The notes under the pieces: model-generated | What the model saw: the letters and a program-made list of their open reading frames with translations, nothing else | Database searches by the model: none | Told to the model about the DNA's origin: nothing | NCBI GenBank assembly: GCA_964373805.1 | Contig: CAYJWF010000003.1 | Span: 23,001 to 87,000, forward strand | Origin: an uncultured Planctomycetia bacterium | GTDB lineage: Bacteria > Omnitrophota > Gorgyraeia > 1-14-0-20-64-10 | Direction of reading: 5' to 3' | Length of the DNA stretch: 64,000 nt | Part shown: positions 22,354 through 39,220 of the stretch, piece after piece | How positions within the stretch are numbered: position 1 is the first letter of the stretch | Layout: the number at the start of each line of letters is the position of its first letter | Made by a program: the position numbers and the translations under genes

Positions 22354-23835
22354 TCATCCGAACTCCACTTTCCGTTGGTAAACCAAAACGGGAAGAGCCT
22401 TCGGATCGGATCGAAACCGGTGATAGCCCGGATCGGGACGATTCTGCCAAGGGATGTCCGGTGCGTCAAGAAGAATGGGTCGGTAGCGCCTCTGGATCTC
22501 CTGATGGTAGGGGCTGTTGAAGAATTCCAGGGAGATCCGGTCTCGTCGAATGACGATCCAATCGGGGTAAGTCTCGCGCGTAAACTCTCCCAGCCGTCGC
22601 AGCGGCTCCACCTTGAGACCCGTATAGAAAATGATCGGCATCTCTTCGTAAGGGGTTTTCACGACCTCCCCCGGCTTAGCGTTGGCCTTGAAGAACTCCA
22701 CCACCCCATCGATGGGTCCCCGATAGGGATGGGTCAGTTCTCCCAAGAACTCGATGAGAAGAGAACGCACCGGGACCTCCGGATGGGAGAGTTGTTTCTT
22801 GACCACTGGAATCTGAGCCGCCAGGATCGAGGAACCGGAATATTGGAGGAGATAAACCCAAGGCAGAAGAAAGATGAGATACCGGAAGTGGCGTTGTTCG
22901 GGAATGAAGATGAGGAAGAGGAAGCCCACTCCCAGCAAGCACCCCACGAGGCTCCAAGCCTGGCGGATACGAACCTCGGAATCTCCAAAGAGAGCTCGAG
23001 GAGAAGTTTTGGTGAGGGCCAAGAGGAGAGTCCAGAAAACAATGGGAACCACGAAGCGGTTCACCTGACGAAAATAAAATTCCAGGTGATGTCGGATTTC
23101 CAGCCCCAAGAAGGCGCGGTGGTGTTGCCCGCTTTGAAGGTAGATCATCCAAGGTACGGTCAGGAAGCCGACCGCCACGAGTAGGGCTAGCCCCCGGTTC
23201 AGTTGGGACGCCAAGGGGCGACTTAAGGCAAAGTGGAGTCCCAGAGCAGCCAGGGTGGCCGCGAATACCCCGTGGTCGGTATGGAACAGGAGAGCCAACG
23301 CCGCCATCAGCTCCAGGCCGGCCCACCTTCTTTCCCGGAGGAACCGCCAGTAGGCCAACGCGCTCCACAAGGAAAAGAAGACTGTGGGGGCGTAATATCG
23401 GCATTGGCGCATATGGAGAAGGAACGGCACGGAGGTTACCAGAAAGAGGCTTACTCCTCGAGCCAAGGAGATGTTTTGAAAGAGCCTTTTTACAACCGCG
23501 TAACTTAAAAGTAAGGCCGCCAGACCAAAGAGGGCGAAGGGAAAACGGGCAGAGACGGTGCCTTCTCCAAACAAAGAGAAGGAGGCCGCCGCCAAAACCA
23601 TCGGCAACCAAGAATGGTAAGTCCAGGCGTACCCTTCCCTCACGGGTAAGGCGGGGTTCACGTAATTTGCACCGTCAAAGGCCTTGGGATATCCGAATTG
23701 GAGGGTATGGCGGCCTAAAAGAGCCGTCTCCGCTTCATCCTGCCAGAGTCGGCCGTTACCTAAGTTGGTTAAAAGGAAAAGAGAACCGATCACGAGTAAC
23801 CCCAGGGCCCAAGGATCCGACTTAAGAAATTTCAT
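22354..23835 (-). CDS. GT-C fold membrane glycosyltransferase, ArnT/PMT-like (GT39/GT83 family)
   Basis: 493 aa, ~11 predicted TM helices. N-terminal loop with DE motif (GRLWQDEAETAL) characteristic of polyprenyl-P-sugar dependent GT-C enzymes. Sits next to the ArnC-like gene. Confidence 0.65.
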   Translation of the reverse strand: MKFLKSDPWALGLLVIGSLFLLTNLGNGRLWQDEAETALLGRHTLQFGYPKAFDGANYVNPALPVREGYAWTYHSWLPMVLAAASFSLFGEGTVSARFPFALFGLAALLLSYAVVKRLFQNISLARGVSLFLVTSVPFLLHMRQCRYYAPTVFFSLWSALAYWRFLRERRWAGLELMAALALLFHTDHGVFAATLAALGLHFALSRPLASQLNRGLALLVAVGFLTVPWMIYLQSGQHHRAFLGLEIRHHLEFYFRQVNRFVVPIVFWTLLLALTKTSPRALFGDSEVRIRQAWSLVGCLLGVGFLFLIFIPEQRHFRYLIFLLPWVYLLQYSGSSILAAQIPVVKKQLSHPEVPVRSLLIEFLGELTHPYRGPIDGVVEFFKANAKPGEVVKTPYEEMPIIFYTGLKVEPLRRLGEFTRETYPDWIVIRRDRISLEFFNSPYHQEIQRRYRPILLDAPDIPWQNRPDPGYHRFRSDPKALPVLVYQRKVEFG

Positions 23836-24913
23836 CGGCCCTTTCCTTCCCGAAAAGTTGATCGATGGTTTCTAGGACCTCTGCCACGGTTAACCCCTTG
23901 AGACAAGCGTTGTCCCAAGGGCACGGGGGGAATCGGAATCCCTGATAGCAAGGTCGACAGGCGAGACCTTTGGCCACGGTGCGATGACCGTTTCCCTGGG
24001 GCCCGTAGACCGTGCCGTCCACGGGCCCAAAGATCGTTACAGTCTTCGTTCCCACCGATGCGGCCAGATGCATGGGACCGCTGTCGTTGCCGATGACCAG
24101 AGCGCATCGTTTGAGAAGTCCAGCCAGGAGCAGGAGGGAGGGAACCTGGACCGCGAGGATCGCCGCAGAAGGCGAGAGGGTATGGGCAATGGCTTGACAG
24201 AGGAAGGCCTCTTCGGAATCTCCCAGCAGTAGGATCCGAGCCCGGTAGCGTTTGGCCACATGGGCGGCCACCTGAGCGAAGCGCTCGGCCGGCCACTGCT
24301 TGAAAACCGCCTGTGGCCCCCAACTGGCTCCTCCTCCCGGGACGATGCCGACGATGGAATCGCGGTCGCCGACGTCTTGAGATTTTAGGTACTCGGCCGC
24401 TTCCTCCCGGACCGTTTCTGGAAGGTCAAACGAATGACGGATCGAAACCCGCGGCCGGATTCCAAGAGGCGTCAAAAGCTCCAGATAATGGTGGGCCACC
24501 GGTTGGTGGTGGAATCCGTTCAGGGGAAAGCGGTCGGTGAGAAATTTCCCCCGTCCGTGGAAGTCAAAACCTATCCTCTTGGGGATCCCGGCCAGCCGGC
24601 CGGCCAACCCGTACTGCCATCCGAGCGAAAGGTCCACCAACACGTCGAAGGGCTGCTGTCGGATCGTATCGATGAGTTTCCCCAAATAGCGTAATCCCTC
24701 TAAGAGAGATTCACGCCAAAAGGCCCGAAATGTATCCTTTTCAAAAACGTAAACGCGATCGACGAACGGCCAGCCTTCCACCAGCTCGCTGGTTCGTCGG
24801 TTACAGAGAAACCCCAGGAAACCGTGGGAATCAAAATCCCGTAAGGCGTGAAGGAGGGGCAGCGTGGCTAGGACATCTCCAATTCCGAAGGGATTCGCGA
24901 TCAGGATTCGCAT
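23822..24913 (-). CDS. GT9 family glycosyltransferase (LPS heptosyltransferase-like)
   Basis: MRILIANPFGIGDVLATLPLL N-terminus and C-terminal GNDSGPMHLAA motif. Confidence 0.8.
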   Translation of the reverse strand: MRILIANPFGIGDVLATLPLLHALRDFDSHGFLGFLCNRRTSELVEGWPFVDRVYVFEKDTFRAFWRESLLEGLRYLGKLIDTIRQQPFDVLVDLSLGWQYGLAGRLAGIPKRIGFDFHGRGKFLTDRFPLNGFHHQPVAHHYLELLTPLGIRPRVSIRHSFDLPETVREEAAEYLKSQDVGDRDSIVGIVPGGGASWGPQAVFKQWPAERFAQVAAHVAKRYRARILLLGDSEEAFLCQAIAHTLSPSAAILAVQVPSLLLLAGLLKRCALVIGNDSGPMHLAASVGTKTVTIFGPVDGTVYGPQGNGHRTVAKGLACRPCYQGFRFPPCPWDNACLKGLTVAEVLETIDQLFGKERADEIS

Positions 24914-24932
24914 AAACTTTCCGAATGGAGGG

Positions 24933-25922
24933 CTATGTTTTTCCGGCCAGGGCGACGATGTTGGGAGCCAAAGAGCCGATGGACCCCATTCGGAGCCACC
25001 GCTCAGGCTTCGCTAACCAGTAGAAGAGGGAACGCCCCAGATGCCGCTTCCAGTCCATAGTCCAAGGAGATGGATACTGGTAATACTGCCCGACGTACTG
25101 ATGCCAGACCGGTGTCTGGATCGGTTTTCCTATTGTTATTCGAACTATGGAAAAACCGGCTCGCTCCAGCATGCGGACTAATGTCTTATCGGTGTAATGG
25201 ACAACGTGTTCATAAGAATCCCAGATACCCTGGGTTGGCCTTTTTCCCATGAGCTCGAGGGCCCTTTGTTTATAGAGGTTCCAGCGGCCGTTCGGCACCT
25301 TAACATAGAGGATGCCATCGTCCGCCAAGAATCGGTGGACGTCCTTTAAGAAGGGTAATGGCTCACCGATGTGTTCAAGGACATCTGAGAGCGCGATGAC
25401 GTCGAATGCCCGTTGTTCACATTCGGGAAGCTCATGGAGGAAACAGTTGTAGACGGTAAGGCCAAAATGCTGGACGGCCAGCTTTGAGATGGAGGGTGAT
25501 GGCTCAACGCCAACAGCGCTCCAGCCTTCTCTCCTAACGTGTCGAAGGAGCATCCCCATGTTGCAACCAACATCTAGAAATCTGCCGGAGGGTTTATAGC
25601 GTTTAATGAGCTCTAGCTCTTCGATATAGTTGGGGTCTCGATGGTGAGCAGCTTTTTCCTCGAATATAAGACGGGCCTCGGCGTAATACAGGTCGGGATC
25701 TCCCCAGTAGATTTTCTCAGGCGCCTTGATTCTCGGACATGCATAGAGGAGCGAACACGACAGACATCTGGAAATACCAATAGAACCATGCTCGGTATAA
25801 ATTTGCTTCCGGCGCTCACTCCTACAGAAGGGACACGGGACGGTCACCACTTCCTCGGGTGAATAATGATCCTTCTGGGTTCCGCCCCTGACGTAAGCCT
25901 GGGATTCTTCAATGAGTGGCAT
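24933..25922 (-). CDS. SAM-dependent methyltransferase with N-terminal Cys4 zinc-ribbon
   Basis: CPFCRS...CLSCSLLY zinc ribbon, then LDVGCNMGMLL motif I and DVIALSDVLEHI. Confidence 0.7.
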   Translation of the reverse strand: MPLIEESQAYVRGGTQKDHYSPEEVVTVPCPFCRSERRKQIYTEHGSIGISRCLSCSLLYACPRIKAPEKIYWGDPDLYYAEARLIFEEKAAHHRDPNYIEELELIKRYKPSGRFLDVGCNMGMLLRHVRREGWSAVGVEPSPSISKLAVQHFGLTVYNCFLHELPECEQRAFDVIALSDVLEHIGEPLPFLKDVHRFLADDGILYVKVPNGRWNLYKQRALELMGKRPTQGIWDSYEHVVHYTDKTLVRMLERAGFSIVRITIGKPIQTPVWHQYVGQYYQYPSPWTMDWKRHLGRSLFYWLAKPERWLRMGSIGSLAPNIVALAGKT

Positions 25923-26915
25923 TCAGCCGGTCCTCCGATGGCCTTGGATGGATAGGCTCTCCTGGACGGCAGCAGTCACTTCTTCAGGCACGGGGGAAAG
26001 AAGAAGATGGTGCCCTTCCCCTAGAGGACGCCATCGGGCAAGCAAAGATCCATGGTTGCACGGAGCGACCACAACGGTTGGGGTTCCGACGGCTGCTGCA
26101 ACGTGAACCGGCCCACTATCGTTTGATACCAGTACGGCGCATTGTTTCAAAAGAGCCGGAAGAATCCCTAGCGGGACTCGGCCGACCAGGTTTATATAAC
26201 CGGTAGAAAACATGGGTTTCGCTTCATCCATGGAGTGGATGGATTCTGGTCCTCCTATGACGACGATGGTATGCCCGCTTTTCTGAAGCAGACGGGTGAC
26301 TTCTCCAAAGGATTCCAGCGGCCAGCTTTTTTGAGGGTTGCTTGTCCAGGGATGGATGGCAATGGGGTGATGGCCTAGGGCAATACCACAAGCATTCATG
26401 AGCTGTTGGGCTTGACTTTCTTTCTCTGGATCGGTGGGTAGGTGTAAGGTCGATGGGGATGCCGGGATTCCTAAGAGGCGAACCAGTTCGAGATTATAGT
26501 TTACCTCATGGTGGTTTCTGAACACCTTGGTATCTGGAATGGACAAGGTCAGTAGAACTCCTAGTTTTCGATGGTAGCCAATCCGGGTGGGAATGCCGGC
26601 GAGAAAAGCGGCAACGTGAAATAGTTTGGTGGGATTAAGTATAATGGCACTATCGAACCTTTCCTTTCGCAGACGCCTTGCAACTCGAAAAGCTCCAACC
26701 CAACCCTTCCCTTCCTCAGGGGAACACGTCAGGATTCGATCGACGTCCGGATGCCCTTCGATGAGCGGCTCCAGGCCTTGCTGAACCAAGAGGGTGATTT
26801 GAGCTTTGGGGAAAGCCTCACGAGCAGCATGGACGGCCGGCAGACTCAAGAGCAATTCCCCCATCCGATCTGTCCGTACGAGCAGGATTCGTGATAGCGT
26901 TCGAGGTTCTTTCAT
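25923..26915 (-). CDS. GT9 family glycosyltransferase (LPS heptosyltransferase-like)
   Basis: ILLVRTDRMGELLLSLPAV N-terminus and SNDSGPVHVAAA motif. Confidence 0.8.
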   Translation of the reverse strand: MKEPRTLSRILLVRTDRMGELLLSLPAVHAAREAFPKAQITLLVQQGLEPLIEGHPDVDRILTCSPEEGKGWVGAFRVARRLRKERFDSAIILNPTKLFHVAAFLAGIPTRIGYHRKLGVLLTLSIPDTKVFRNHHEVNYNLELVRLLGIPASPSTLHLPTDPEKESQAQQLMNACGIALGHHPIAIHPWTSNPQKSWPLESFGEVTRLLQKSGHTIVVIGGPESIHSMDEAKPMFSTGYINLVGRVPLGILPALLKQCAVLVSNDSGPVHVAAAVGTPTVVVAPCNHGSLLARWRPLGEGHHLLLSPVPEEVTAAVQESLSIQGHRRTG

Positions 26916-26930
26916 GGAGTCCGCATGTTT

Positions 26931-28190
26931 TCACTCCTCCCTTATCTCTTCGGAACGTAAGATCTGAAGGCTCAAGCCAACCGCTAAGCCGGAGAGAACC
27001 CAGAAGAGCGTTGCTTGTCTTAAGGCGTAAAGGTTGGTATCAAAGATAGACTGGACCAGAAATGCGGCTATTCCCGCAACGAGCCCCAGGAGAAATAATC
27101 TCAAGTCCGGTGGAGCAGGTTTTCGAAGGGCCTTATTCCACACCATAAAAAGTGAACCCAAAAATAGGAGAAAACTTATTAAGCCGAGCAACCCCGTTTC
27201 TGCAGTAATCTGGAGAAGACAGTTATGGGCATAGGCAGGTCCGTTATTCGGAACATCGGCATAGTCGAGGTAATTTGCCATAAAGGTATTCAGTCCATGC
27301 CCAAGGAATGGCCTGTCCTGGATCATACGCCATCCCACTTTCCACATAACGTGCCTTTCTTGTAGACCGGCGTCTGAGAAAGCCAACATCTCGAAGAATT
27401 GGCCCTTTCTGAAGAATAAGACGGCTGAGCTCATGGCTAACGCAACACTGAGGCCGATTCCTACCATTCTTTTTCGTGAATAGATCAACAGAAGAGAAAG
27501 TCCAGCCCACAGACCAATCAGGGCTCCCCTCGAAAGAGTCCAGGCAAGGCATCCCAGAATAAGAAGCCCGCCTAGCCACCCGCTAATCCGAGTCTGTTTG
27601 GGACGACTCAGCAGATGAGCAAGCATCACAAGACCCACGACCATCAGAAAGGTGGCGAGGTCATTCGGGTTCTCATAGGGTCCTACCATTCGAGAATAGA
27701 CCAGCGCTCTATCCCGGATCGGGTCGCGTCCGGCGACCTGCTGTATCACCGCGTAGATCCCAACTAACCAGGCAGCGCCGAGTAAGGCCCGAAGGCTACG
27801 AGGAGCTACTGTAGGGTGGTCGGCTATCTCCATCACAATGACAAAAAATAGAAGATACTCGGCTGTTTTTCGAACAAGAGCTTGGATGCTGAGGAAGGGA
27901 TAGGTGCTGTAAGATACCGACCAGATGCAGACGCCCAGATAGGCGAACAGAGTGAATAAGATGGCCTGATTCGGCACGGATTTTACTAGGAGGGGCTCTT
28001 TCCTCCCAGGCCAATGCCATCCGATTAACCATGACACGAGCAGGAGCGGAAAGAGGATCTCGATCCCTGCCTTGGAGAACGGTATAACCCATAGAAGGCT
28101 GTAGAGAAGCCCACGAGCTATCCTTTGCATCCGGGGGGGTAAACCGTAGTTATTAACTTTCCCTCTGGGATCTAAATTCTCCCTGCGCAA
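26931..28190 (-). CDS. O-antigen ligase family protein (WaaL/Wzy_C domain)
   Basis: ~10 TM helices. Conserved periplasmic loop AHNCLLQITAETGLLGL and the upstream SRGAL motif. Alternative start at internal ATG ~28130. Confidence 0.7.
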   Translation of the reverse strand: MRRENLDPRGKVNNYGLPPRMQRIARGLLYSLLWVIPFSKAGIEILFPLLLVSWLIGWHWPGRKEPLLVKSVPNQAILFTLFAYLGVCIWSVSYSTYPFLSIQALVRKTAEYLLFFVIVMEIADHPTVAPRSLRALLGAAWLVGIYAVIQQVAGRDPIRDRALVYSRMVGPYENPNDLATFLMVVGLVMLAHLLSRPKQTRISGWLGGLLILGCLAWTLSRGALIGLWAGLSLLLIYSRKRMVGIGLSVALAMSSAVLFFRKGQFFEMLAFSDAGLQERHVMWKVGWRMIQDRPFLGHGLNTFMANYLDYADVPNNGPAYAHNCLLQITAETGLLGLISFLLFLGSLFMVWNKALRKPAPPDLRLFLLGLVAGIAAFLVQSIFDTNLYALRQATLFWVLSGLAVGLSLQILRSEEIREE

Positions 28191-29961
28191 GAGTACCGAC
28201 CACCTTCCAACTCAGGCCGTTTTCCTCACAATAGCCCTGAATTTGTTGAACAAGATCTTCGGGTGGTTGGCGTATGGCGATGAGAACTTCCCGAACGCCG
28301 AATTCCTGTACGACCTTCCCTAACCCCTGACGAGATCCGATGATCCGAATCCCGTGTATGCTGTCTCCCTGCTTGGTGAGATCGTCATCCAAGAAGCCAA
28401 CCACCCGATACTTTCCTGAACCGGCTAACTTCAATTGTTGAAGCAGGAGTTCCCCGGTGTCACCGGCTCCGACAATAAGAACGGGAATACCCCCTTGAAT
28501 GGAAGAGGTGATCCATTCGTTTAAGAGCGGTTCTATGATTCTCGCCCCGCTGACCGCTACGAACAGGAGAAGGCCATCAATAACAAAAACAGCTCGGGAG
28601 TACCCCTCAAAGCGCCACAGGTACAGCACGACGAGGGCCGAAAAAACGGACCCAACGATAACCGCTCGAAGTATGTTGGTCAGATCGGGTAGGCTGATGT
28701 ATCGCCACACTCCTCGATAAAGCCCGCACGAGAAGAAGCAGATCATCTTTACGGCAATGATCCAGGGAAGGGATCTTAAGATGAGAATTTCCAGATCCGG
28801 AGTGAGGGTCGCTTCGAACCGCAGCGCATGGGCGATGACATAAGAGGCGCAGATCAGTGCAAAATCCACGCAGACTTCCACGAGTCGCCGTTTATGCATC
28901 AGCATCGTTTCGATAAAGGCAACGCGTGATCCCATTACGGACGAAGAAACCCGTGTGTAAACGCGGACCTTGGCGAAGTAAGCTCCGATGACGAAGAGAA
29001 GTCCCGTGGCCAATATGGAGATGCCCGTTAGGGCCATGGGCTTTTGTTTGGATAACAGAATACTTATCGCCCCGCAGGAGGCGGTAAAGGCATAGAGGGC
29101 GAAAACAACCTGACGGGGGGTCAACCCAAGAATTCCTAACCGGTGGGAGAGGTGATCTGTGCCTCCTTGGAATGGATGCCGACCATTGAGAAGTCTTTGG
29201 ATGGTCACAAAACAGGTGTCGAAGATCGGCACCGCCAGCAAAAAGGTAGGCAGGGCTAAGATTCCCGCCAGGCGTGCTGGCTGGTGCCAGGTGCCCATCA
29301 AGGCGAGCGTCCCCAGACCCAGCCCTAAAACCTGGCTGCCCGTATCTCCCATGAAGATCTTTGCTGGCGGAAGGTTGTATCGAAGAAATCCTAATGTCGC
29401 TCCGCCCAAACTCGCAGAGATAAGGGCAACCAACCACTGTTGGGTCTCAAGGGCATGCCAGGCACAAAAGCTTGCCGCAATGACGCCAATCCCACCGGAA
29501 AGTCCATCCATGTTGTCCATCAGGTTAAAGGCGTTCATGACAAGAACAAGCCATCCGATGGTCAACGGAATGGTAAGCCATGGGATCACGATGTCGGCTT
29601 GGATGCCTGAGACAACGACGAGACACCCTGAAAGAATCTGAACAATCAGTTTCGAATAAGGATGGAGCCTCCGGAGATCGTCTACAAGTCCAGCAAGCAA
29701 CATGAGCACCCCTCCGAGCATCAGGCCGATCATCCGGGGATCCTTGTGGATTGCCCATCCAACGGCTGCCAAAAAGCCCAAGGCGATTGGAAGGCCGCCG
29801 AGACGGGCAACGACTCGGCGACCCCATCGATCTTGAGAGGGACGAGAAACACATCCGATGGAGATGGCAACTGTCCGTACCAAAGGTGTCAGGAGGATGG
29901 AAAAGAGGTAGGCTCCACTGCCTATCAACAAGATCTGTAACAGCGATGCGGCCAGCGTCAT
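28153..29961 (-). CDS. polyprenyl-phosphate N-acetylhexosamine-1-phosphate transferase (GT4 MraY/WecA family) fused to a C-terminal TM + Rossmann (CoA-binding-like) module
   Basis: N-terminal ~350 aa carry the WecA/MraY motifs DDLRRL, NAFNLMDNMDGL and IFMGDTGS. C-terminal ~250 aa carry 4 TM helices then IPVLIVGAGDTGELLLQQLK...YRVVGFLDDD. That resembles the N-terminal domain of WbaP/CapD-type enzymes but lacks their catalytic domain. Confidence 0.7.
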   Translation of the reverse strand: MTLAASLLQILLIGSGAYLFSILLTPLVRTVAISIGCVSRPSQDRWGRRVVARLGGLPIALGFLAAVGWAIHKDPRMIGLMLGGVLMLLAGLVDDLRRLHPYSKLIVQILSGCLVVVSGIQADIVIPWLTIPLTIGWLVLVMNAFNLMDNMDGLSGGIGVIAASFCAWHALETQQWLVALISASLGGATLGFLRYNLPPAKIFMGDTGSQVLGLGLGTLALMGTWHQPARLAGILALPTFLLAVPIFDTCFVTIQRLLNGRHPFQGGTDHLSHRLGILGLTPRQVVFALYAFTASCGAISILLSKQKPMALTGISILATGLLFVIGAYFAKVRVYTRVSSSVMGSRVAFIETMLMHKRRLVEVCVDFALICASYVIAHALRFEATLTPDLEILILRSLPWIIAVKMICFFSCGLYRGVWRYISLPDLTNILRAVIVGSVFSALVVLYLWRFEGYSRAVFVIDGLLLFVAVSGARIIEPLLNEWITSSIQGGIPVLIVGAGDTGELLLQQLKLAGSGKYRVVGFLDDDLTKQGDSIHGIRIIGSRQGLGKVVQEFGVREVLIAIRQPPEDLVQQIQGYCEENGLSWKVVGTLAQGEFRSQRES

Positions 29962-31781
29962 GTACGCCGAAACAAATGGGTAATCCCGTGTACGGAGGAG
30001 TACAGGAATAGACCGAAGCCGATAACCCCAATAAAACGAAAAGGTTCCGCGGAAAATCGGCCGAAACGCCAGAGGGTTTTTTGACTTTCCAATGGATAAT
30101 AGACGACTAGGCCGTTTGTGAGAGTCCCCTGGCTATCCAGGGAAAAAGCGCGTCGGATTCGAAGGTAGGAATTTCCAAGCCCGTTGTTGTAAAGATCCGT
30201 CCGTTCCTGAGGGCTAAGGAGCCGCCTCCAGATGCTGACCTCATCAATGCAGCCGTTCATATAGCCCCCGCCCTCGTGGAAATTGGAGAAACGGCCAATC
30301 GTGAACTCGAAAGGGCTGTCGTAGCTGGTTGTCTCCGGTGGCATCGTGGCCGTATCGATGGAGCCATTGTTAACCTGTATGGAGAGGGTATTCGGATCTA
30401 TCCCACTTGTCTGGTACCAGGCCACGATATAGTACCAAGTTCCAGTAGCAGGAGCACTAGAGTTGTAAGAACCAGTGGCCCAGGAGTTTAAACCGTTGCC
30501 TACCGTAAACTCAAAGACGTCCTGGCTGGGGCTGTAGCGTAGTAGATACTCATTAGAATGGGTCTTACTCGAATCTCCTTTGCTGGCGAAAATCATCTCC
30601 TCCTTGCTCTCTAAATAAACCCAGGCTGCCACCGTAAAGTCGACGTCCCCCATGCTGAGCTTCGGATTGTCTGGAGTACTGAGATACTGTGCTTCAGTCC
30701 GAACAAACTTAGCCGTTTTGCCTACTTTACCATCCACTGAGGTGACGTTGTTATGGTTCACAAGTTGGGTTTCACCATCACCCGGGTGGCTGGCGTCCGA
30801 AAGATTGGGCAGTGTCAAGAGCTGTGCCTTCCACGGATTTTCCTGGAAGAACCTGGCCTTCCAGCCTCTGTCTTCTGCGGCAGCGACCCAGACAATTTGG
30901 GGGAAGGCTGTTAAGGTGCTGGGCCAACGCCAGCTTTCCTTTCCGGCGGAAGCGACGAGGATAACCTTCTGACGAGCGGCATAGGCCGTCGTTTCCACCA
31001 AGCTTTGGGAGGCCCACCAACCTCCAAAGCTTAAGTTGATCATTTGAACTCCCTGCTTGACGGCGTAGGTAATGGCTTCGCAGATGGCTGCGGTCGACAG
31101 CCACGGACCGGATCCCACCCGTAACGGTAAGAAGAACAATTCCGTTTCCTCTGTTCCGGTGAGGATGGAAGAGATGACCTCGCTTCCATGAGATTTAAAA
31201 GCCCCTTCCCCACGGGGATCGGGGTCCCGTCCGTAAAAATCGTAACCCTGGAAATCATCGATGTAGCCGTTCCCATCATTATCGGTCTGATCGACTGGGA
31301 TTTCGCCGGCATTCTTCAGCAGCCGATCCGATAAGATGGGCTGCGTCAGATCAAAACCAGAGTCAATCACGGCTATGGAAAATCCTTTGCCGGCCGCTTG
31401 TCCAGTGACGATCGCTGATCCTTTGGTATCCACGGTGTGAAAGAAGGCTGTTAACTTGTAGTTCGGCTCAGCGTATACGACGGCCGGATAGGTGCGAAGA
31501 TGTTCGAGAACCTTCGCCACGGGTATCGACTGATTGAAGCTAACCAAGTAGAGTCCCCAGGGAGCGATTTCGCGCTCAATGGAGATATGGACCTCCTCTG
31601 TAATCTTTTTAAGTTGGGATAAGGGCGTTTCCAGATCAAACCTGACTAAGGCCTGCCCCGGCAGAAAATCCGGAGAGGCTTCCTCAATCCTTGCCTCTGC
31701 CGGGCAATCCTTCGCGTTTAGGATTTCCATGCAAAGGCAGATTGCGACGAACCAGAATACCCTACGGCTGACCATACACAC
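29958..31781 (-). CDS. secreted subtilase-like (S8) protein with degenerate active site, LamG/ConA-like lectin domain and C-terminal hydrophobic anchor
   Basis: Signal peptide. S8 Asp (AVIDSGFD) and His (HGSEV) regions and INLSFGG are present. The oxyanion Asn position reads SAGK, and no GTSxA serine segment was found. Instead a LamG-like domain follows (DVDFTVAAWVYL...IDEVSIWRRLLSPQERTDLYNNG). C-terminus AEPFRFIGVIGFGLFL...RRT resembles a PEP-CTERM-type sorting signal. Confidence 0.6.
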   Translation of the reverse strand: MCMVSRRVFWFVAICLCMEILNAKDCPAEARIEEASPDFLPGQALVRFDLETPLSQLKKITEEVHISIEREIAPWGLYLVSFNQSIPVAKVLEHLRTYPAVVYAEPNYKLTAFFHTVDTKGSAIVTGQAAGKGFSIAVIDSGFDLTQPILSDRLLKNAGEIPVDQTDNDGNGYIDDFQGYDFYGRDPDPRGEGAFKSHGSEVISSILTGTEETELFFLPLRVGSGPWLSTAAICEAITYAVKQGVQMINLSFGGWWASQSLVETTAYAARQKVILVASAGKESWRWPSTLTAFPQIVWVAAAEDRGWKARFFQENPWKAQLLTLPNLSDASHPGDGETQLVNHNNVTSVDGKVGKTAKFVRTEAQYLSTPDNPKLSMGDVDFTVAAWVYLESKEEMIFASKGDSSKTHSNEYLLRYSPSQDVFEFTVGNGLNSWATGSYNSSAPATGTWYYIVAWYQTSGIDPNTLSIQVNNGSIDTATMPPETTSYDSPFEFTIGRFSNFHEGGGYMNGCIDEVSIWRRLLSPQERTDLYNNGLGNSYLRIRRAFSLDSQGTLTNGLVVYYPLESQKTLWRFGRFSAEPFRFIGVIGFGLFLYSSVHGITHLFRRT

Positions 31782-32772
31782 TGACGTGGATATCGGGTGT
31801 GATCCCGTTTATCTCCTTTCGGTAGTAGGCGATGACGTTCTCAAGGATATCGTTGAGTTTCATGGTGGGGGAAAAGCCGACAAAACGGTTTGCCTTCGTA
31901 ATATCAGGCACTCGCCTCACCATATCTTCGAATCCCTCTTCATAGGCTTTATCGTAGGGGATGTAGGAAATCTGAGACCGGCTTTCGGTCAAGTCGATGA
32001 CGTGTTTGGCCAGCTGCTCAATGGAAACCTCCTCTTGACTCCCGATGTTGAAGGCCTCTCCTGCCGCCTCGGGTAATTCCATCAGCCTTGCCATCGCGAG
32101 AACGGCATCCTTGACGTAGAGAAAACAACGAGACTGTTTCCCGTTTCCATAGATGGTCAAGGGATCTCCTCGTAGGGCCTGCTGGACGAAACGGGGGATC
32201 ACCATGCCGTAGGCTCCCGTTTGACGGGGACCTACCGTATTGAACAGTCGGACGATCACGGTAGGAATTCCCTTTTCCTTCCAATACGTGTAGGCAAGGA
32301 TTTCATCAACCGCCTTCGATGTGGAATAAGCCCACCGACTTTTCAAGGGAGAACCCAGTATCCGATCCTCATCCTCTTTGAGAGGTCCATTGGTGTTCTT
32401 GCCATAAATCTCTGAGGTAGAGGTGATGAGGACTCGTCTCCGATAGCGGTGGGCCATATCCAGGACAATCTCGCTGCCTCGAATGTTTGTCGTCAATGAT
32501 TCCAGCGGATGCTTGATGATCAGGTCCACTCCCACGGCCGCTGCCAAATGAAAAACAGCATCGGAGCGCTCCACAAATTTGTCCACGAGACGCTCATCCA
32601 GAATAGAGCCCACTACCAGCTGGAAGGAGGGATGTCCCTTGAGTGGGTTGCAGTTTTCGACGCGGCCCGTTGAGAGATTATCGAGAACTACCACCTGATG
32701 TCCTTGAGCGATGAGAACCTCGGCCAAATGAGATCCGATAAAACCAGCGCCACCTGTAATGAGTACTCGCAC
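31762..32772 (-). CDS. NAD-dependent epimerase/dehydratase (UDP-sugar epimerase / decarboxylase-like SDR)
   Basis: ITGGAGFIGSHL and YSTSK motifs, 336 aa. Confidence 0.75.
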   Translation of the reverse strand: MRVLITGGAGFIGSHLAEVLIAQGHQVVVLDNLSTGRVENCNPLKGHPSFQLVVGSILDERLVDKFVERSDAVFHLAAAVGVDLIIKHPLESLTTNIRGSEIVLDMAHRYRRRVLITSTSEIYGKNTNGPLKEDEDRILGSPLKSRWAYSTSKAVDEILAYTYWKEKGIPTVIVRLFNTVGPRQTGAYGMVIPRFVQQALRGDPLTIYGNGKQSRCFLYVKDAVLAMARLMELPEAAGEAFNIGSQEEVSIEQLAKHVIDLTESRSQISYIPYDKAYEEGFEDMVRRVPDITKANRFVGFSPTMKLNDILENVIAYYRKEINGITPDIHVSVYGQP

Positions 32773-33992
32773 TAACCTTTTCCTCCTAACTGCTCATACA
32801 GCGTTGAGATATCCTGTATGAGCCGCTCCTGGTTGAATTCCTTTAGGGCGTAGGAACGGGCCGCTTCCCCCAGCTTCCTTCGGAGGCCGGCATCTGCTGC
32901 AACCAACTTCAGCGCGGCGGCCATCCCTTGCGCATCTCCCGGGCGGATGAGTATCCCTCGATCGGTGACTTCGTATCCGCCGCTCGGAATATCCGCCGTG
33001 AGAACTCCTTTGCCCTCTAACAAGTCACGAACCCCTCCGACGTCCATTGCGACAACGACACGGCCAGCCGCCATGGCCTCAATAAGACAAACCGGTGTCC
33101 CCTCATTCTGTGAGGTGAGACAGACGACGTCCAGGCACTCGTACCAAGTACGGAGATCTTTCTGCCAACCGATGAACCGAACGACCCCTGCGAGATCTCG
33201 CCTTCTCACCTCTTCCTCCAATTTTTCTCTCAGAGGCCCATCGCCTACCACGAAAGCCTCTACGGCATGGAGAGGGATCTGCTTGACGAACTGTCCTACC
33301 GCTTCAAGGAAGAGGCTTGGGTTCTTAATAGCAACCAGTCTGCCTACCAGGCCGCATCGGAAGACGCAGGAGCCATTCCGGGATGGAATCTTGGCCAAGG
33401 CAGACAGATCAATCCCCAGAGAGATCACTTGGACCTGATCCTCTCGACCGATTCCTTTTTCTAGAAGTTCCTGACGTATGGCTGCACTCACTGCGATAAG
33501 GCGGTCCGTATAAAGCGACAACCACCGTTCGAGAAAGATAAAAGCCCTTGTCAGCCAGGGATGGAAATAGCCTTCGAGAACATGCCCATGGAACGTGTGG
33601 ATCAGCACCGCCTTTTTCCCCGATGTTCTCCCGTAACCGATCCGGTTATACAGAATCCCCGCCAGGCGGCCTAGGGTTCCTGATTTGGCCATGTGCGTAT
33701 GGAGGATATCGGGCCGTTCTTTCCATACAATCAAAACGATTTGAAGCAGAGCAACAGCATCCGCCCAAGGGCGGATCGAGCGGCGAAGGCTCTTGATTTG
33801 AATGAGCCGTGTTGGGTGGCCCTTGAACCGCTCACTTAAATCACCTTCTCTCGCATCGGATTCTCCAACCACTAGACACGTGGAGAATCTTTCCGAATCC
33901 AGTCCGGCCGACAAAACAGAAGCGTGAACAGCCGGACCCCCAATATTTAAGCGGGTTAAAACCCTGAGGATCTTTATCACGGCTTGGCACAT
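32772..33992 (-). CDS. GT4 family glycosyltransferase (GT-B)
   Basis: N-terminal Glyco_trans_4-like region (LNIGGPAVHASVL) and C-terminal E..E motif region (SQNEGTPVCLIEAMAAGRVVVA). Confidence 0.75.
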   Translation of the reverse strand: MCQAVIKILRVLTRLNIGGPAVHASVLSAGLDSERFSTCLVVGESDAREGDLSERFKGHPTRLIQIKSLRRSIRPWADAVALLQIVLIVWKERPDILHTHMAKSGTLGRLAGILYNRIGYGRTSGKKAVLIHTFHGHVLEGYFHPWLTRAFIFLERWLSLYTDRLIAVSAAIRQELLEKGIGREDQVQVISLGIDLSALAKIPSRNGSCVFRCGLVGRLVAIKNPSLFLEAVGQFVKQIPLHAVEAFVVGDGPLREKLEEEVRRRDLAGVVRFIGWQKDLRTWYECLDVVCLTSQNEGTPVCLIEAMAAGRVVVAMDVGGVRDLLEGKGVLTADIPSGGYEVTDRGILIRPGDAQGMAAALKLVAADAGLRRKLGEAARSYALKEFNQERLIQDISTLYEQLGGKG

Positions 33993-34044: not shown

Positions 34045-34767
34045 TTAGGATGAAGGTCTAAAGAGTCTTAAGATCTCCATCTTCAGCCGAGGCCAGGGTT
34101 TCTGCCGTTGTATCCGGGAAGGATTGACGCCCAACTCAGAGACGGTTTCAAAATAGCGCTCGTAGGCGATGCCGTTGATCTGAAGCCCTTTGGCAGCGGC
34201 TCGGATGAGCTGAGGATCTCTCTGAAGTTCTTCCCAATGGGCTAACTGACCCCGTTCGTTGGTAAAAAAAATCCCGTTGGCTACATCAAAAAGGATTACC
34301 TTTTCTTCCCCTACCTGAACGACTGCCACAATGATCTGGTGTGAGAGTCCTTTGGCCTTCAAGATGGTTGAGCCTGTAGGGAAGCCACCATAACTTGCGA
34401 GCAGTGCGAAAGCCTCGGTCCTTTGATCGGGCGCTCCATATCCCCGGATGAGGACGTTGAGGATGTGGTCGTCTACAATGGGGAAATTGCCCGGGATCGG
34501 GCGTACGTTCTTCACCGTCCAGAAGAAAAGCTTCTCCAGTCTCTCTTGATCCGTGGTCGCCCCCTGCGTGATCTCTTGTGCTAAACGTCGGGCCTGGAGG
34601 TCGCGACTTACGAAATGGATGGCCTTCTCATACAGGGGAATTTCCTTACTCGACCAAACGAAATCTATCCCTGAGCGCGTTGTCACGGGCCAGCTCAGGA
34701 TTAAAGTTCCTGTCACGACGACAAGCGTTGCACCAATTCCCCAGTGAACCGAGCTCAATTTTTTCAA
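34045..34767 (-). CDS. membrane-anchored transglutaminase-like protein with substituted catalytic Cys
   Basis: Track ORF 34045..34980 overlaps the upstream gene by 216 nt. An in-frame TTG at 34767 forms a TTGA overlap with the upstream stop and is preceded by AAGGG. It would give (M)KKLSSVHW plus a TM helix. The TGase-like core is GATTDQERLEKLFFWTVKNV...RGYGAPDQRTEAFALLASYGG (Gly where the Cys is expected)...SHQ...FDV. Confidence 0.45.
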   Translation of the reverse strand: MKKLSSVHWGIGATLVVVTGTLILSWPVTTRSGIDFVWSSKEIPLYEKAIHFVSRDLQARRLAQEITQGATTDQERLEKLFFWTVKNVRPIPGNFPIVDDHILNVLIRGYGAPDQRTEAFALLASYGGFPTGSTILKAKGLSHQIIVAVVQVGEEKVILFDVANGIFFTNERGQLAHWEELQRDPQLIRAAAKGLQINGIAYERYFETVSELGVNPSRIQRQKPWPRLKMEILRLFRPSS

Positions 34768-36041
34768 CGAAGTGCCCTTTTTTGTCTCATGAACCAAATT
34801 CCGGAAAGTCGACCTCTTATCCACCCTAGGCTTATGGCAGCGAACAAGAGCAGGACCGGTTCTACCAGCCACCGGTGACGGCCATCCACGTAGTAAAGGC
34901 TTTGATAGGCGGCGATCGAGGATGCGTAAGCCAGAAGAAGAAGTAACGGTGTGTTCCTCCACTGTCGGCGTAAACGCCAAAATCCCGCCAGGATCAGGGT
35001 TCCTACAACGCTATAGTACCACCGGTACCAGCGGGAATAGGGAGGAGGATATTTCAAGCCGGCTTGTGGGGCGAACCACCAAAAGGTCTTCAGCTTCTTC
35101 CCATAGAGGCGGAGGGTCGAAAGCGGGTGGTCTTGGATAAATCTCCAAGCCTCTTGTTGGAACAACCGACTTTGGCCACCCTCGTCCAACTGGGAGAGCT
35201 GGCGGTAAAATGCCGGCGAGGCCGTGCTCAATACCGTCCTACCATCGGGTAGGTGAGCGGATCCGGATGCAAGGGGGTTGTTTCCCTGCCAGAAAGATTG
35301 GCTGGCCGAGGTGATAACGATGGGAAAGCGGTGGAGACGCAAGGCATTGCGGATAAGCCACGGGGTTACCAGGACGCCGGTAGTAAATCCCATTAGCCCC
35401 AAGAGTGCCAGAGTTTTCTGAGGCCGATCTCGAAATTCCCAGTAAAACCATCCGGTGGCCAATAGCAGAAAAGGGATGATGGTTCCTCTGGACAGGAGGG
35501 CAAAGCCGCTTGCGAGTCCAACGTGAAGAGCCATGACGCCCGTAGGTTCTTGCCGGAAACGCAACCAGGCCCATAAGACCCAGAGAAAAGCAAAGTGATC
35601 CAACGTCAGGGTATGGAGAAGACTCGAATAAAAAATTAAGGGAGGATGAAACGCCACCAACCAAGCTCCCGCGTCTGCCGCGTTGGGATGGGCTGGGAAA
35701 ACGTGATTTCCAATGGCGCGCACCTGAAGACAGGCGGCGGCGCTGATCAGACACTGGAGGATCAGCAAGGCAACCTGATGATGATGGGTCAGGGCGTAGA
35801 CGGCGGCACAGAAGAGGGGATAGGCGGGCAATAAGAAGGCACGGTAAGGTACACCGAGATGCTCAATGACAAACCCCTGCCCGGCTAGGAGGTTATTGGC
35901 GATGATCTCCATTTCTAAGGGAGTTGGATTGAAAAAATGCCCCAGCTGCCAGCCGACGACTAGTCGAATCGCAAAAGCTGTCAGGAAAAGAACAACGGTC
36001 TGTGTAACGGTGGACTTCGCTTGAGCGGGGATTGGATTCAT
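34764..36041 (-). CDS. polytopic membrane protein, GT-C/ArnT-like glycosyltransferase or polysaccharide polymerase candidate
   Basis: 425 aa with ~10 TM helices. Aromatic/His-rich loops. Family is not identifiable by eye. Confidence 0.45.
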   Translation of the reverse strand: MNPIPAQAKSTVTQTVVLFLTAFAIRLVVGWQLGHFFNPTPLEMEIIANNLLAGQGFVIEHLGVPYRAFLLPAYPLFCAAVYALTHHHQVALLILQCLISAAACLQVRAIGNHVFPAHPNAADAGAWLVAFHPPLIFYSSLLHTLTLDHFAFLWVLWAWLRFRQEPTGVMALHVGLASGFALLSRGTIIPFLLLATGWFYWEFRDRPQKTLALLGLMGFTTGVLVTPWLIRNALRLHRFPIVITSASQSFWQGNNPLASGSAHLPDGRTVLSTASPAFYRQLSQLDEGGQSRLFQQEAWRFIQDHPLSTLRLYGKKLKTFWWFAPQAGLKYPPPYSRWYRWYYSVVGTLILAGFWRLRRQWRNTPLLLLLAYASSIAAYQSLYYVDGRHRWLVEPVLLLFAAISLGWIRGRLSGIWFMRQKRALR

Positions 36042-37093: not shown

Positions 37094-39220
37094 CTATGAG
37101 GCCGCGCCGACTGAGGCGTGGCCGGGGGTTGAACCCTTTGGCATAAGCGGGTGGCCCCTACGAGGGAAAAGGTCAGAGGTTATTAGAAAATCGTATAACG
37201 TGCTACAGGGGTTAACCTCCGAGGAATAATAGAGACGTTCCAGCAGGTCTGGCCAGCGGTTCTTTCGTTCAAGGACCCCTCCCTCTTCCTGGATGCATTT
37301 CGATAGGGCCCAGCGCAGGCTTTCTGCATCCTGGAAAAAGAACACACCCTCTTCGATGTCCCACATGGGCGACTGATCGTAATGCCTAGCGGTGTCGTAG
37401 ACAATCGGCATACTGCCGAAGGCGATGGCTTCTATTCCCACCGAGGTCGTGCCCGTAATGGTGGCTCGCGATGCGCTCCATAGATTGGAAGACCACGACT
37501 CGACCATGCCGTAGCGATGGAATCCTTGCCTTGCTGCAATCGTCGCTGCCTCTCGACGGACCGGACAGAGGGGATGATCCTTGATGAGAAAAAACGTTTT
37601 CGGAAACGCCTTTCCGGCCTCGAAGGCAAGCCTCAGGATGGCCACTGAATCGGTGCGAAGAAAGGTTGTTGCGATCAACACCGGCAGGCATCCCTTTGGG
37701 AGGTCGATGTCCCACTGTTTTAGACCATCTTCGAACTGGTGGCCTTGCCTGGCCAGGTGCCGGGGATGTCCTAGGCGAACCGGTCCAGTGAGTACCACTC
37801 GCTTCGGGGCCAGCCGTTCCTGCAGAATGTTCAGCGTCGTCTTCCCATTGACAGCAATCAAATCAGGCAGTGGTGCTAATCGCGGATTCCGGTCACCACC
37901 ATTTTGACGAATCTGGCCCCGGGGAAATCGGTAACCCAGGTGATTCTGACCGGTCAGACCCGTCTGCAGGCCAATGACCGGAACGCTTGGCTGAGCAGAT
38001 TTTAACCCGGCCGTGAAGGCTCTTTCCGTTGGTTGATATTCGAACGGGATGGTCATACAGCCGATGTTTCCCAACCGCGCGGCTAACCGACGGATGGCCT
38101 CTGCCGCACATAAATTAAAGGGGATCTCGGGACTCTGAATATCGTGCTCTATTTCCCTCATCAGTAAAGGGCCGACTTCAATGCCCCTGAAGTGAGCCGT
38201 CCGTTTTCGGCCTCTACGCCAGGATTGATAGGACCGTCTGCAGCTGTTGCCAAAACAGAAGCGCAACAGCTCCAGAAAGGTTAATTGGGATTCGAGCAGA
38301 ATGATCCTGGACTTGGTCATCTGACGACGCATCTGCCTTGACAGGAAAAGGATTTTGCCGGCATGGGTCATGGTCGTCGCCGCAAATACGGGGGGGTATC
38401 CATGGTCTTCCAGAAACTTCGGCCACTCACCAAACGATCGGTTGTGCCACTGTCCTGGCTGACGGAATTCCCACATCGATGGAAACAGCGTACAAAACAA
38501 GGCCCAGGACCGGGCAGGCGGTGGGACCCCACCGGCAGAGCCCGGTGCACCTTGCTCTGGCCCGGTTGGGGCGACATCCCGAGCAACCACCTTGCCTATG
38601 CCGGTGAGTCGCAGAACAACCCATCGTAAACATTGTTGCAGGCCAAACCACCATCGCCTGAGCCATGGGAACTGGCTTAAGGATTGGCGCAGTGTTCGCC
38701 GTCGTTTAGCCCGAATCACCCCGTCCAGCCGCGCGTTATAACGCTGGGCAAGCTGACGAATCGCTGGCACAACTGCAAGATCATCGGTTAAGAGCGTTAC
38801 CCGCTTAGGTCGATGCTCAGCCAATACTTGATCGATGATCTGTAACCGGTAAAGAAGATGAATCAGGGGGGTACGCATCGGACTCATCTCAGAGATCGGC
38901 ATGAGCCACCAAACGCCAATTTGACCCCGCCAGGTCCAAAGATCCCAAAGGCCATTTTCCCTGACGAATCGGTCGAGAAAGGGAGGGTACTCTTGGCGTA
39001 TTCGCCGGCGTGCTTCTTGTGCATAAGGAGTGGGTGAGATCCATCGCGCTCTGTCTCCAATCTCTTGAGGGATACCGTCACCCGCTTCCAAGGACGAAAA
39101 TTCCAACCATTGGACGGTGCATCCGTCTCTTTGCAGGGCCTGGAGGGTACGAAGGCGACTTCGTTTCGACTGCGCTTGCTCTGTCAAGCCGATAAAGAGA
39201 ATTTCTTCCCCGATTTTCAT
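37094..39220 (-). CDS. hypothetical protein, paralog A of a three-member family (putative transferase)
   Basis: 708 aa, unrecognised family. Shares an N-terminal EILFIG motif and a central IPFEYQPTE...VPVIGLQTGLTGQNH block with 46633..48471 and 61727..63808. Confidence 0.5.
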   Translation of the reverse strand: MKIGEEILFIGLTEQAQSKRSRLRTLQALQRDGCTVQWLEFSSLEAGDGIPQEIGDRARWISPTPYAQEARRRIRQEYPPFLDRFVRENGLWDLWTWRGQIGVWWLMPISEMSPMRTPLIHLLYRLQIIDQVLAEHRPKRVTLLTDDLAVVPAIRQLAQRYNARLDGVIRAKRRRTLRQSLSQFPWLRRWWFGLQQCLRWVVLRLTGIGKVVARDVAPTGPEQGAPGSAGGVPPPARSWALFCTLFPSMWEFRQPGQWHNRSFGEWPKFLEDHGYPPVFAATTMTHAGKILFLSRQMRRQMTKSRIILLESQLTFLELLRFCFGNSCRRSYQSWRRGRKRTAHFRGIEVGPLLMREIEHDIQSPEIPFNLCAAEAIRRLAARLGNIGCMTIPFEYQPTERAFTAGLKSAQPSVPVIGLQTGLTGQNHLGYRFPRGQIRQNGGDRNPRLAPLPDLIAVNGKTTLNILQERLAPKRVVLTGPVRLGHPRHLARQGHQFEDGLKQWDIDLPKGCLPVLIATTFLRTDSVAILRLAFEAGKAFPKTFFLIKDHPLCPVRREAATIAARQGFHRYGMVESWSSNLWSASRATITGTTSVGIEAIAFGSMPIVYDTARHYDQSPMWDIEEGVFFFQDAESLRWALSKCIQEEGGVLERKNRWPDLLERLYYSSEVNPCSTLYDFLITSDLFPRRGHPLMPKGSTPGHASVGAAS

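Follow-up and report, generated by a model that had tools for sequence, protein, structure and literature searches.

A predicted polytopic phosphoglycosyl transferase with a C-terminal four-helix and Rossmann-like module in an Omnitrophota glycan cluster

Phosphoglycosyl transferases (PGTs) commit scarce undecaprenyl phosphate (Und-P) to one surface glycan, which makes their regulation an open question. In the large monotopic PGT WbaP of S. enterica, a domain whose function is unknown (DUF) provides the majority of dimer contacts; on its own, this DUF gains stability with UMP, UDP and UTP and loses it with UDP-Gal, and UMP has an apparent half-maximal inhibitory concentration of 4.1 µM, with an unusual curve, on the full-length enzyme (PMC10942596). 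In EpsZ of M. xanthus, which is devoid of the beta-hairpin found in WbaP, formation of the active dimer is favoured by a response regulator that acts via the DUF (PMC12802240). Polytopic PGTs are listed as 'PGT only' (Table 1, PMC10942596), and the occurrence of the WbaP module on functionally unrelated dehydratases has been called 'puzzling' (PMC10942596). Here, a 64,000-nucleotide stretch (the window) of contig CAYJWF010000003.1, from an uncultured bacterium of the Omnitrophota (GCA_964373805.1), was analysed, and a gene on its minus strand (28153..29961) was found to encode a 602-aa protein in which a MraY/WecA-type transferase domain is followed by a four-transmembrane-helix (4-TM) bundle and a Rossmann-like domain (PF13727), together referred to below as the module.

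A literature search, with subscription-only papers outside its scope, found no description of a protein that combines Glycos_transf_4 with PF13727, which is no proof of absence; the architecture is visible in precomputed Pfam annotations.

The fusion gene and its domains

The gene begins with ATG at 29961 and runs for 602 codons without interruption. This ATG overlaps the upstream gene's stop codon (ATGA), and at the 3' end 38 nt are shared with the next open reading frame (ORF), a Wzy_C gene. Reading 28153..29961 on the plus strand was rejected, as stop codons abound in that translation. The identical gene is present on a public contig (run ERR4904390), where an independent gene caller gives the same 602-aa product. 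The gene is confirmed as real and intact; the first-pass annotation had reported a 602-aa ORF at these positions and had named no strand. The features of the gene and its product are as follows.

28153..29961, minus strand: fusion gene for the 602-aa protein (polytopic PGT, 4-TM bundle and PF13727 Rossmann-like domain), stop codon included
28969..29961, minus strand: MraY/WecA-type polyprenyl-phosphate N-acetylhexosamine (HexNAc)-1-phosphate transferase domain, aa 1–331, with 11 transmembrane (TM) helices, N-out/C-in (PF00953, Foldseek, hydropathy, AlphaFold2)
29677..29682, minus strand: D94-D95 in cytoplasmic loop 2, the catalytic Asp pair, which all 30 close relatives have and which is conserved at 90% or more in 133 family representatives
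29500..29535, minus strand: NAFNLMDNMDGL, the NxxNxxDxxDGL motif in cytoplasmic loop 3, aa 143–154 (sequence conservation)
29335..29352, minus strand: MGDTGS motif in cytoplasmic loop 4, aa 204–209, paired with MraY FMGDTGS in PDB alignments
29140..29166, minus strand: GGTDHLSHR, conserved His-containing cytoplasmic loop 5, aa 266–274 (G266, G267, D269, H270, H273 and R274 conserved at 90% or more)
28891..28968, minus strand: basic cytoplasmic linker, aa 332–357, with five Lys and Arg residues, ending in a conserved HKRR (pLDDT below 50 at aa 330–355)
28525..28890, minus strand: 4-TM bundle TM12–15, aa 358–479 (hydropathy, AlphaFold2 model), aligned to the 4-TM helices and DUF of WbaP (8t53)
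28189..28524, minus strand: cytoplasmic Rossmann-like domain PF13727 ('CoA_binding_3', the DUF of large monotopic PGTs), aa 480–591 (Pfam, Foldseek, DSSP)
28453..28470, minus strand: GAGDTG glycine-rich loop (GxGxxG), aa 498–503, with G498, A499 and G503 conserved at 90% or more across 133 representatives
28381..28395, minus strand: FLDDD, acidic residues ending beta-2, aa 523–527, with D525 conserved at 90% or more and D525/D526 invariant in alignments A1, A2 and A4

Profile, motifs and predicted fold agree in placing the protein in the MraY/WecA superfamily. The search against Pfam revealed Glycos_transf_4 (PF00953) at aa 78–223 (E-value, 2.3e-33; 115.9 bits versus a cut-off of 27). Among the NCBIfam models, the N-terminal half lies near those of WecA and MraY, and scores far below both equivalog cut-offs. 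Foldseek analysis of this half against the PDB gave MraY (5jnq) with a target TM-score of 0.76 and a root-mean-square deviation (rmsd) of 3.8 Å over 326 columns, together with 19 further MraY/DPAGT1 chains, human DPAGT1 included, at E-values below 1e-3. Loop 5 (GGTDHLSHR), judging from what is known of WecA, is presumably the sugar-nucleotide recognition loop of WecA-type enzymes.

The C-terminal half matches Pfam CoA_binding_3 (PF13727) at aa 426–581 (E-value, 6.1e-10; 39.8 bits versus a cut-off of 25). Residues 365–592 align to positions 1–230, the 4-TM and DUF part, of the NCBIfam EPS_sugtrans, WcaJ and WbaP models, and these alignments end near model position 230 of ~450. The chain ends at aa 602, and the Pfam search of the protein gave no match to PF02397 (Bac_transf) or to PF02719 (Polysacc_synt_2). 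Its domain content sets the protein apart from both WbaP-type PGTs and CapD-type dehydratases, whose catalytic domains are absent from it. With Foldseek, the C-terminal half matched 3nkl (TM-score, 0.69–0.70; rmsd, 2.3–2.5 Å; 102 columns) and WbaP 8t53 (245–254 aligned columns; probability, 1.0).

Hydropathy analysis revealed 11 hydrophobic segments in aa 1–330 and four in aa 358–478, followed by a soluble end. The full-length AlphaFold2 model, built from 30 family members (mean predicted local distance difference test score, pLDDT, 73.9; predicted TM-score, pTM, 0.71), likewise has 11 + 4 helices, then a Rossmann-like domain of five strands and three helices (aa 490–590) and a disordered 11-residue tail. 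With the N-terminus outside and the C-terminus inside, the loops carry 17 Lys and Arg residues on the cytoplasmic side versus five on the outer side. The experimentally determined topology of E. coli WecA comprises 11 TM helices with a periplasmic N-terminus and a cytoplasmic C-terminus (PMC7439462). The same N-out/C-in order places the Rossmann-like domain of the fusion protein in the cytoplasm, as in WbaP (PMC10942596). Such a fusion is feasible because the 11th helix of WecA-type enzymes ends in the cytoplasm, and it is on this side that the 4-TM module, N-in in WbaP- and CapD-type proteins, normally begins. It was also observed that the 4-TM bundle reaches a pLDDT of ~80–90 in the full-length model versus ~55–65 when modelled alone (alignments of 30 versus 14 sequences); this drop may reflect the loss of packing against the transferase domain, or the shallower alignment.

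The first-pass annotation, which had described a WecA/MraY-type transferase with an appended TM and Rossmann module, is borne out by the hidden Markov models (HMMs), structure prediction and fold search. The Pfam scan and the TM prediction that it had proposed came out in its favour, with Glycos_transf_4 and CoA_binding_3 each above the Pfam gathering score and 11 + 4 helices recovered by hydropathy and in the AlphaFold model. It had also named two findings that would undo the fusion, and neither was found: there is no frameshift, the same continuous ORF recurring throughout the family, and HMM support for the C-terminal module is present, PF13727 being above its cut-off. The reversed domain order that it had pointed out holds as well, as the module is C-terminal here and N-terminal in WbaP- and CapD-type proteins. 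Of the motifs it had listed, NxxNxxDxxDGL, MGDTGS, LIVGAGDTGELLLQQLK (aa 495–511) and YRVVGFLDDD (aa 518–527) are all found in the protein, whereas its 'DDxxD' reads VDDLRR, and only the DD pair stands.

Conservation, distribution and origin of the module

Conservation was calculated as mean identity to the window protein over the 133 cluster representatives. The values are 0.36 for the transferase domain, 0.34 for the 4-TM bundle and 0.30 for the Rossmann-like domain, compared with 0.18 for the linker (aa 332–348) and 0.03 for the tail. Residues conserved in at least 90% of the representatives include D94, D95, N143, N146, D149, D152, G153, G205, D206, S209, D269, H270 and H273 in the transferase, and D366, P399, Y415, W419, R474, G498, A499, G503, D525, G537 and G542 in the module. 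Conserved almost like the catalytic domain, the module appears to be under selection. Its 4-TM bundle combines the conserved polar residues D366, P399, Y415, W419 and R474 with the loop motifs GLYRGVWRY and LWRFEGYSR, and conserved charged residues within a TM bundle suggest that it is more than an anchor. In Rossmann folds, a glycine-rich loop together with an acidic residue ending beta-2, the usual ribose-binding position, forms the classical nucleotide-ribose site. That GxGxxG and D525 stay near-invariant from phylum to phylum speaks for retention of this site, which is predicted to bind a ligand.

The window gene is an ordinary member of a large, uncharacterised, multi-phylum family. A word-indexed search returned more than 120 full-length proteins (~600 aa) with both Pfam domains, at 49–100% identity, the named sources being Candidatus Omnitrophica metagenome-assembled genomes (MAGs). 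When 1.84 billion 50%-identity representatives were searched exhaustively, 2955 matches fell below 1e-30; the best 150 of these are nearly all single-stretch alignments covering aa ~10–590 of proteins of 570–650 aa, down to 31% identity, and comprise about 130 two-domain versus six long forms. With a profile of the non-Omnitrophota members, 2561 90%-identity clusters were obtained below 1e-30, and the best 120 are all ~600 aa long with both domains, many of them from soil Pyrinomonadaceae.

A genome scan was carried out on one genome per GTDB species, using patterns derived from the modules of five sequences; 518 loci were confirmed and the best 80 were typed. These 80 comprise 38 loci of transferase plus module and 39 of module plus short-chain dehydrogenase/reductase (SDR) dehydratase (CapD/PglF type, ~620–650 aa); none is of WbaP type, and the three-domain form described below is likewise absent, versus the 38 two-domain loci. 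The fusion was also found in Omnitrophota, Nitrospinota, Nitrospirota, Scalindua, Thermodesulfobacteriota, one Pseudomonadota MAG, Abditibacteriaceae, several Acidobacteriota orders, Chloroflexota, Acidimicrobiales, Gaiellaceae, Rhodothermales and Elusimicrobiota, Actinomycetota being among the phyla represented. No cultured host of the fusion was seen in the genome and cluster searches, in which all members came from MAGs and metagenome contigs; the sole isolate in the locus list, Ampullimonas (L070), is of the dehydratase type. NCBI names most members 'hypothetical protein' and a few 'glycosyl transferase' or GlcNAc-1-P transferase, and the JGI name is 'UDP-GlcNAc:undecaprenyl-phosphate GlcNAc-1-phosphate transferase'.

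When aa 331–602 were searched alone, the matches were fragments of the same family and N-termini of 'FlaA1/EpsC-like NDP-sugar epimerase' proteins (COG1086), with no Bac_transf protein among the best 120. A profile of 21 diverse modules matched 3nkl, which is the Rossmann-like domain at the N-terminus of a WbpM-type protein from Vibrio, at an E-value of 3.6e-16, compared with 2.4e-8 for WbaP and 6e-7 for Rex. WbaP was rejected as the closest source on account of this weaker profile match, the lack of Bac_transf among those 120 matches and the lack of WbaP loci among the 80 typed. Based on sequence comparison, the module belongs to the dehydratase (PglF/CapD/WbpM) lineage and is nearer to the dehydratases than to WbaP. 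The first-pass annotation was right that WbaP shares the module, and the profile and genome searches shift its typing to the CapD/PglF/WbpM side. The unusual arrangement that it had implied is real, but it is no one-off, being found in a large, old family of many phyla; with the fusion so widespread, three-domain forms included, the surprise is smaller than the annotation implied.

Six of the best 150 representatives are 930–1110 aa long. Four of them (P0125, P0126, P0127 and P0269; 936–1110 aa) combine Glycos_transf_4 and PF13727 with a full Polysacc_synt_2 dehydratase, in the same order of transferase, linker and module, with identities over the whole 600 aa of 41–44% for P0125–P0127 and 31% for P0269. 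P0126 is a single 955-aa gene on two independent contigs (L082:6001-8868 and L083:6001-8868), and the one P0126 context examined is without an adjacent SDR of the type neighbouring the fusion gene (see below), with DegT, oxidoreductase/acetyltransferase and Wzy_C-TPR genes nearby. These three-domain proteins would be, in effect, natural WbpL-WbpM-like fusions. Pseudomonas shows synteny between wbpK (SDR), wbpL (transferase) and wbpM, the gene for a membrane dehydratase (PMC6804347). In a neighbour-joining tree of 326 modules, all CapD-type modules group in a single clade, and three-domain forms turn up at scattered positions among the two-domain ones. With moderate confidence, we infer an origin of the family in a fusion between neighbouring genes, one wbpL-like and the other wbpM-like, followed in most lineages by loss of the dehydratase domain.

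Other lengths were observed as well. The remaining two long proteins, P0172 and P0216 (~930 aa), have ~330 extra C-terminal residues and no dehydratase; this part is without a Pfam match in P0172 and has a weak TPR_12 match only in P0216, and would be another extension of the same scaffold. On contigs of 50–240 kb, P0314, P0348 and P0349 (250–400 aa) carry PF13727 only, without a recorded transferase or dehydratase, and are possible stand-alone 4-TM and DUF proteins.

Gene neighbourhood and proposed role

The window is one long minus-strand glycan cluster of ~60 kb. Its glycosyltransferases and membrane proteins include the families GT1, GT2 and GT9, two PMT_2 and one Wzy_C; its sugar genes include two NeuB, three cytidylyltransferases (CTP_transf_3), WbqC, a DegT aminotransferase and a formyltransferase, and radical-SAM enzymes and methyltransferases are also present. 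Searched with HMMs that we built for GT4 and for the module, the 64-kb window yielded a single polytopic PGT and a single protein bearing the module, with no CapD-type gene and no second module-bearing gene. Among the 25 families listed of the 63 matched by Pfam in the other 38 genes, Bac_transf was absent. The neighbours of the fusion gene are listed below.

31762..32772, minus strand: conserved partner, a 336-aa extended SDR resembling UDP-glucuronate decarboxylase (UXS) (Pfam, PDB sequence search)
26931..28190, minus strand: downstream 419-aa Wzy_C (O-antigen ligase/polymerase-like) membrane protein, directly downstream in most Omnitrophota loci
32772..33992, minus strand: upstream GT-B (Glycos_transf_1) glycosyltransferase of the same conserved block (Pfam, related loci)
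23822..26915, minus strand: downstream portion of the conserved block, made up of a methyltransferase gene with a GT9 (heptosyltransferase-like) gene on either side

Throughout the Omnitrophota, the order GT1, SDR (336 aa), fusion gene, Wzy_C, GT9, GT9 is kept. The SDR is the most conserved neighbour: its ortholog adjoins the fusion gene in ~25 related loci across phyla (E-values, 1e-100 to 1e-174), and the pair is retained in Nitrospira, Scalindua, Blastocatellales, Thermoanaerobaculia, Chloroflexota and Acidimicrobiales. Its best PDB match is UXS 4lk3 (E-value, 3e-60), a lead and not an assignment, and its NCBIfam matches all fall below the cut-offs. The SDR probably makes or modifies the nucleotide-sugar donor. 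A possible reading of the pairing is that a UXS-type product serves the transferase, or that the SDR works on the lipid-linked sugar; more doubtfully, the pairing also hints at an unusual donor, e.g., a UDP-pentose, a UDP-XylNAc-type or a 4-keto sugar.

Several other genes of the cluster deserve mention. The SDR and transferase genes are separated by a gene (29958-31781, minus strand) whose 607-aa product is an S8 subtilase carrying a LamG/ConA-like domain as well as a Fervidolysin-type pro-domain. The stop of this gene overlaps the start of the transferase gene, and it is missing from the related loci (~25), where the SDR abuts or nearly abuts the transferase; it looks like a lineage-specific insertion into the operon. 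The two PMT_2 proteins (ArnT/dolichyl-phosphate-mannose-type, GT-C; 22354-23835 and 34764-36041, both on the minus strand) flank the conserved block and suggest that the same pathway includes a transfer step in the periplasm with a polyprenyl-linked donor. Two minus-strand ORFs, of 708 aa (37094-39220) and 311 aa (34045-34980), gave no Pfam match at the thresholds used, and the public gene call trims the latter to 213 aa. At ~40000-63800 of the minus strand the cluster continues with the two NeuB, three CTP_transf_3, WbqC, DegT, formyltransferase and two radical-SAM genes, which suggests the synthesis of nonulosonic acid and other rare sugars. The genes scanned also include housekeeping ones (PGK, TIM, GAPDH, an ABC transporter and SBP).

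From the architecture, topology, fold, conservation and gene context observed, we infer the following enzymatic activity, donor type, dimerisation and nucleotide binding. On balance, the fusion protein probably starts the glycan of its cluster, and its tail module would modulate this step by dimer formation, by uridine-nucleotide sensing, or by both. The enzyme would transfer a HexNAc-type sugar-1-phosphate from a UDP-sugar to Und-P on the cytoplasmic face of the inner membrane, as the first step towards the surface glycan of the surrounding ~60-kb cluster. The chain would leave TM11 in the cytoplasm and pass through the basic linker into the 4-TM bundle and the cytoplasmic Rossmann-like domain. 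By analogy with WbaP, this module may build or stabilise a homodimer, and may bind a uridine nucleotide (UMP, UDP or a UDP-sugar) at the GxGxxG/acidic site. Product or precursor levels would then throttle initiation and spare the shared Und-P pool. In the two-domain form, which is without a dehydratase, the sugar-nucleotide chemistry would be supplied by the separate, tightly linked UXS-like SDR.

Several points weigh against this proposal. The C-terminal beta-hairpin of WbaP is absent from the AlphaFold2 model, in which beta-5 (aa 584–587) comes last and is followed by the disordered tail. Since this hairpin carries the domain-swapped dimer contact of WbaP, the WbaP dimer mechanism is not directly transferable. 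MraY-type polytopic PGTs dimerise through their TM domain, and an extra dimerisation module may thus be redundant. EpsZ, also without the hairpin, needs a partner protein (PMC12802240). The fold neighbours of the Rossmann-like domain include the NADH-sensing Rex and KTN, and its nucleotide specificity is unreadable from sequence. The protein scores 95.8 bits against the WecA equivalog TIGR02380, below the cut-off of 326.05; it is thus no WecA ortholog, and the score assigns it no donor sugar. The model of the isolated module, used for the fold search only, has a pLDDT of 65 overall and is weak in its TM part. As regards the evolutionary route, the neighbour-joining tree is nearly star-like, with internal branches too short to polarise loss versus gain of the dehydratase.

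Given that the module occurs on monotopic PGTs, polytopic PGTs and dehydratases, which have UDP-sugar/UMP chemistry at the membrane in common, we would expect a role that serves the three classes alike and is not specific to one catalytic fold. A broader view, which we put forward only tentatively and consider rather doubtful, is that the 4-TM bundle and PF13727 form a portable control or assembly module at the point of Und-P entry, mounted on these three unrelated scaffolds and acting here as an allosteric uridine-nucleotide brake, as a docking site, or as both. If this is true, it would be a type of regulation not described for the MraY/WecA superfamily.

A different role would follow if the module sensed no nucleotides at all and instead bound CapD/PglF-type dehydratases, the SDR, Wzy_C or a flippase. 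We consider this unlikely, and equally so its corollary, a membrane metabolon that passes a labile UDP-4-keto or other modified sugar straight to the transferase. It would suit a module that is common to consecutive enzymes (dehydratase, then PGT), both of which the three-domain fusions join on one chain, as well as the tight cross-phylum linkage to one SDR gene and the invariant polar D366 and R474 in the TM bundle, unusual for a plain anchor; moreover, the DUF is the main protein-protein interface in WbaP and is contacted by a partner regulator in EpsZ. However, the window offers no second module-bearing or CapD-type partner, the linked SDR, of 336 aa, is soluble and lacks the module, and the strictly conserved GxGxxG and acidic motif point to a small-molecule ligand, beyond a protein interface alone. 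Somewhat less probable still is that the protein is a decayed WbpL-WbpM-type fusion minus its dehydratase, with a stub kept for membrane insertion or stability and devoid of any regulatory role. The position of three-domain relatives among two-domain ones in similarity rank and tree would agree with such a relic, as would the abrupt end after beta-5 and the unconserved, disordered 11-residue tail; yet the two-domain form is by far the commoner in both samples (about 130 versus six, and 38 versus none), and a functionless stub would decay or vanish, whereas the module keeps near-invariant ligand-site residues and a conservation near that of the catalytic domain over phylum-level distances.

It is most improbable that the catalytic domain is inactive and the protein serves as a sensor or scaffold. 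The scores well below the curated WecA and MraY equivalog cut-offs could be taken that way, but every catalytic-loop residue known from MraY/WecA (in the DD pair, NxxNxxDxxDGL, MGDxGS and the His loop) is kept and is near-invariant throughout the family, and no other PGT was found in this very large glycan cluster. An artefact, in which a frameshift, mis-assembly or read-through joined a ~340-aa wecA-like gene to a fragment, has a negligible probability: its sole hint, short PF13727-only matches, comes from fragments on 1–3 kb contigs, while the same continuous ORF recurs in hundreds of independent assemblies at 31–94% identity and a length of 590–640 aa, the gene call on the public contig is identical, the linker is in frame, the topology is coherent and the relatives do not have two separate genes at this position.

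The fusion represents a third, independent catalytic context for the module, with thousands of sequences in many phyla. Two-domain forms, three-domain forms and plain WecA-type enzymes make up a natural comparative set for the role of the module, with the practical limit that the members found are all from uncultured organisms. For annotation, members now called 'hypothetical protein' can be named initiating transferases with an accessory module. The significance is tempered in that the family is not rare, is easily found in domain databases and has a mechanism that is only inferred.

Comparison with known systems

Rex, KTN/RCK and PglD_N resemble aa 490–590 in fold and weakly in sequence, the glycine-rich loop included. 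They belong to other proteins with other ligands (NADH, or nucleotides in K+ transport), are without the TM bundle and are distant fold neighbours.

The PglF/CapD/WbpM and FlaA1/EpsC-like dehydratases (COG1086) are the nearest relatives of the module and provide its best PDB match in both sequence and fold (3nkl). They also have a functional and syntenic link to WbpL-type transferases. In contrast to them, the fusion protein is without a dehydratase domain, and its module stands after, not before, the catalytic domain. The three-domain proteins, unlike the two-domain fusion protein, go on into a full CapD-type dehydratase.

WbaP-type large monotopic PGTs (8t53) share the module, its cytoplasmic DUF and the step that they catalyse, the transfer of a sugar-1-phosphate to Und-P, which is predicted for the fusion protein. 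They differ from it in their catalytic domain, which in the fusion protein comes from the unrelated polytopic superfamily, in the position of the module, which is C-terminal here, and in the hairpin, which does not follow beta-5 here.

The closest likeness of the transferase half is to WecA, WbpL and TagO (PF00953), with which it shares the 11 TM helices in N-out/C-in order, the DD pair, NxxNxxDxxDGL, MGDxGS, the His-containing loop 5 and the MraY/DPAGT1 fold, as well as the presumed role in the first membrane step of a Wzy-type surface-glycan pathway. The known members of that group are ~340–400 aa long, and to this scaffold the fusion protein adds 270 aa, comprising four TM helices and a Rossmann-like domain.

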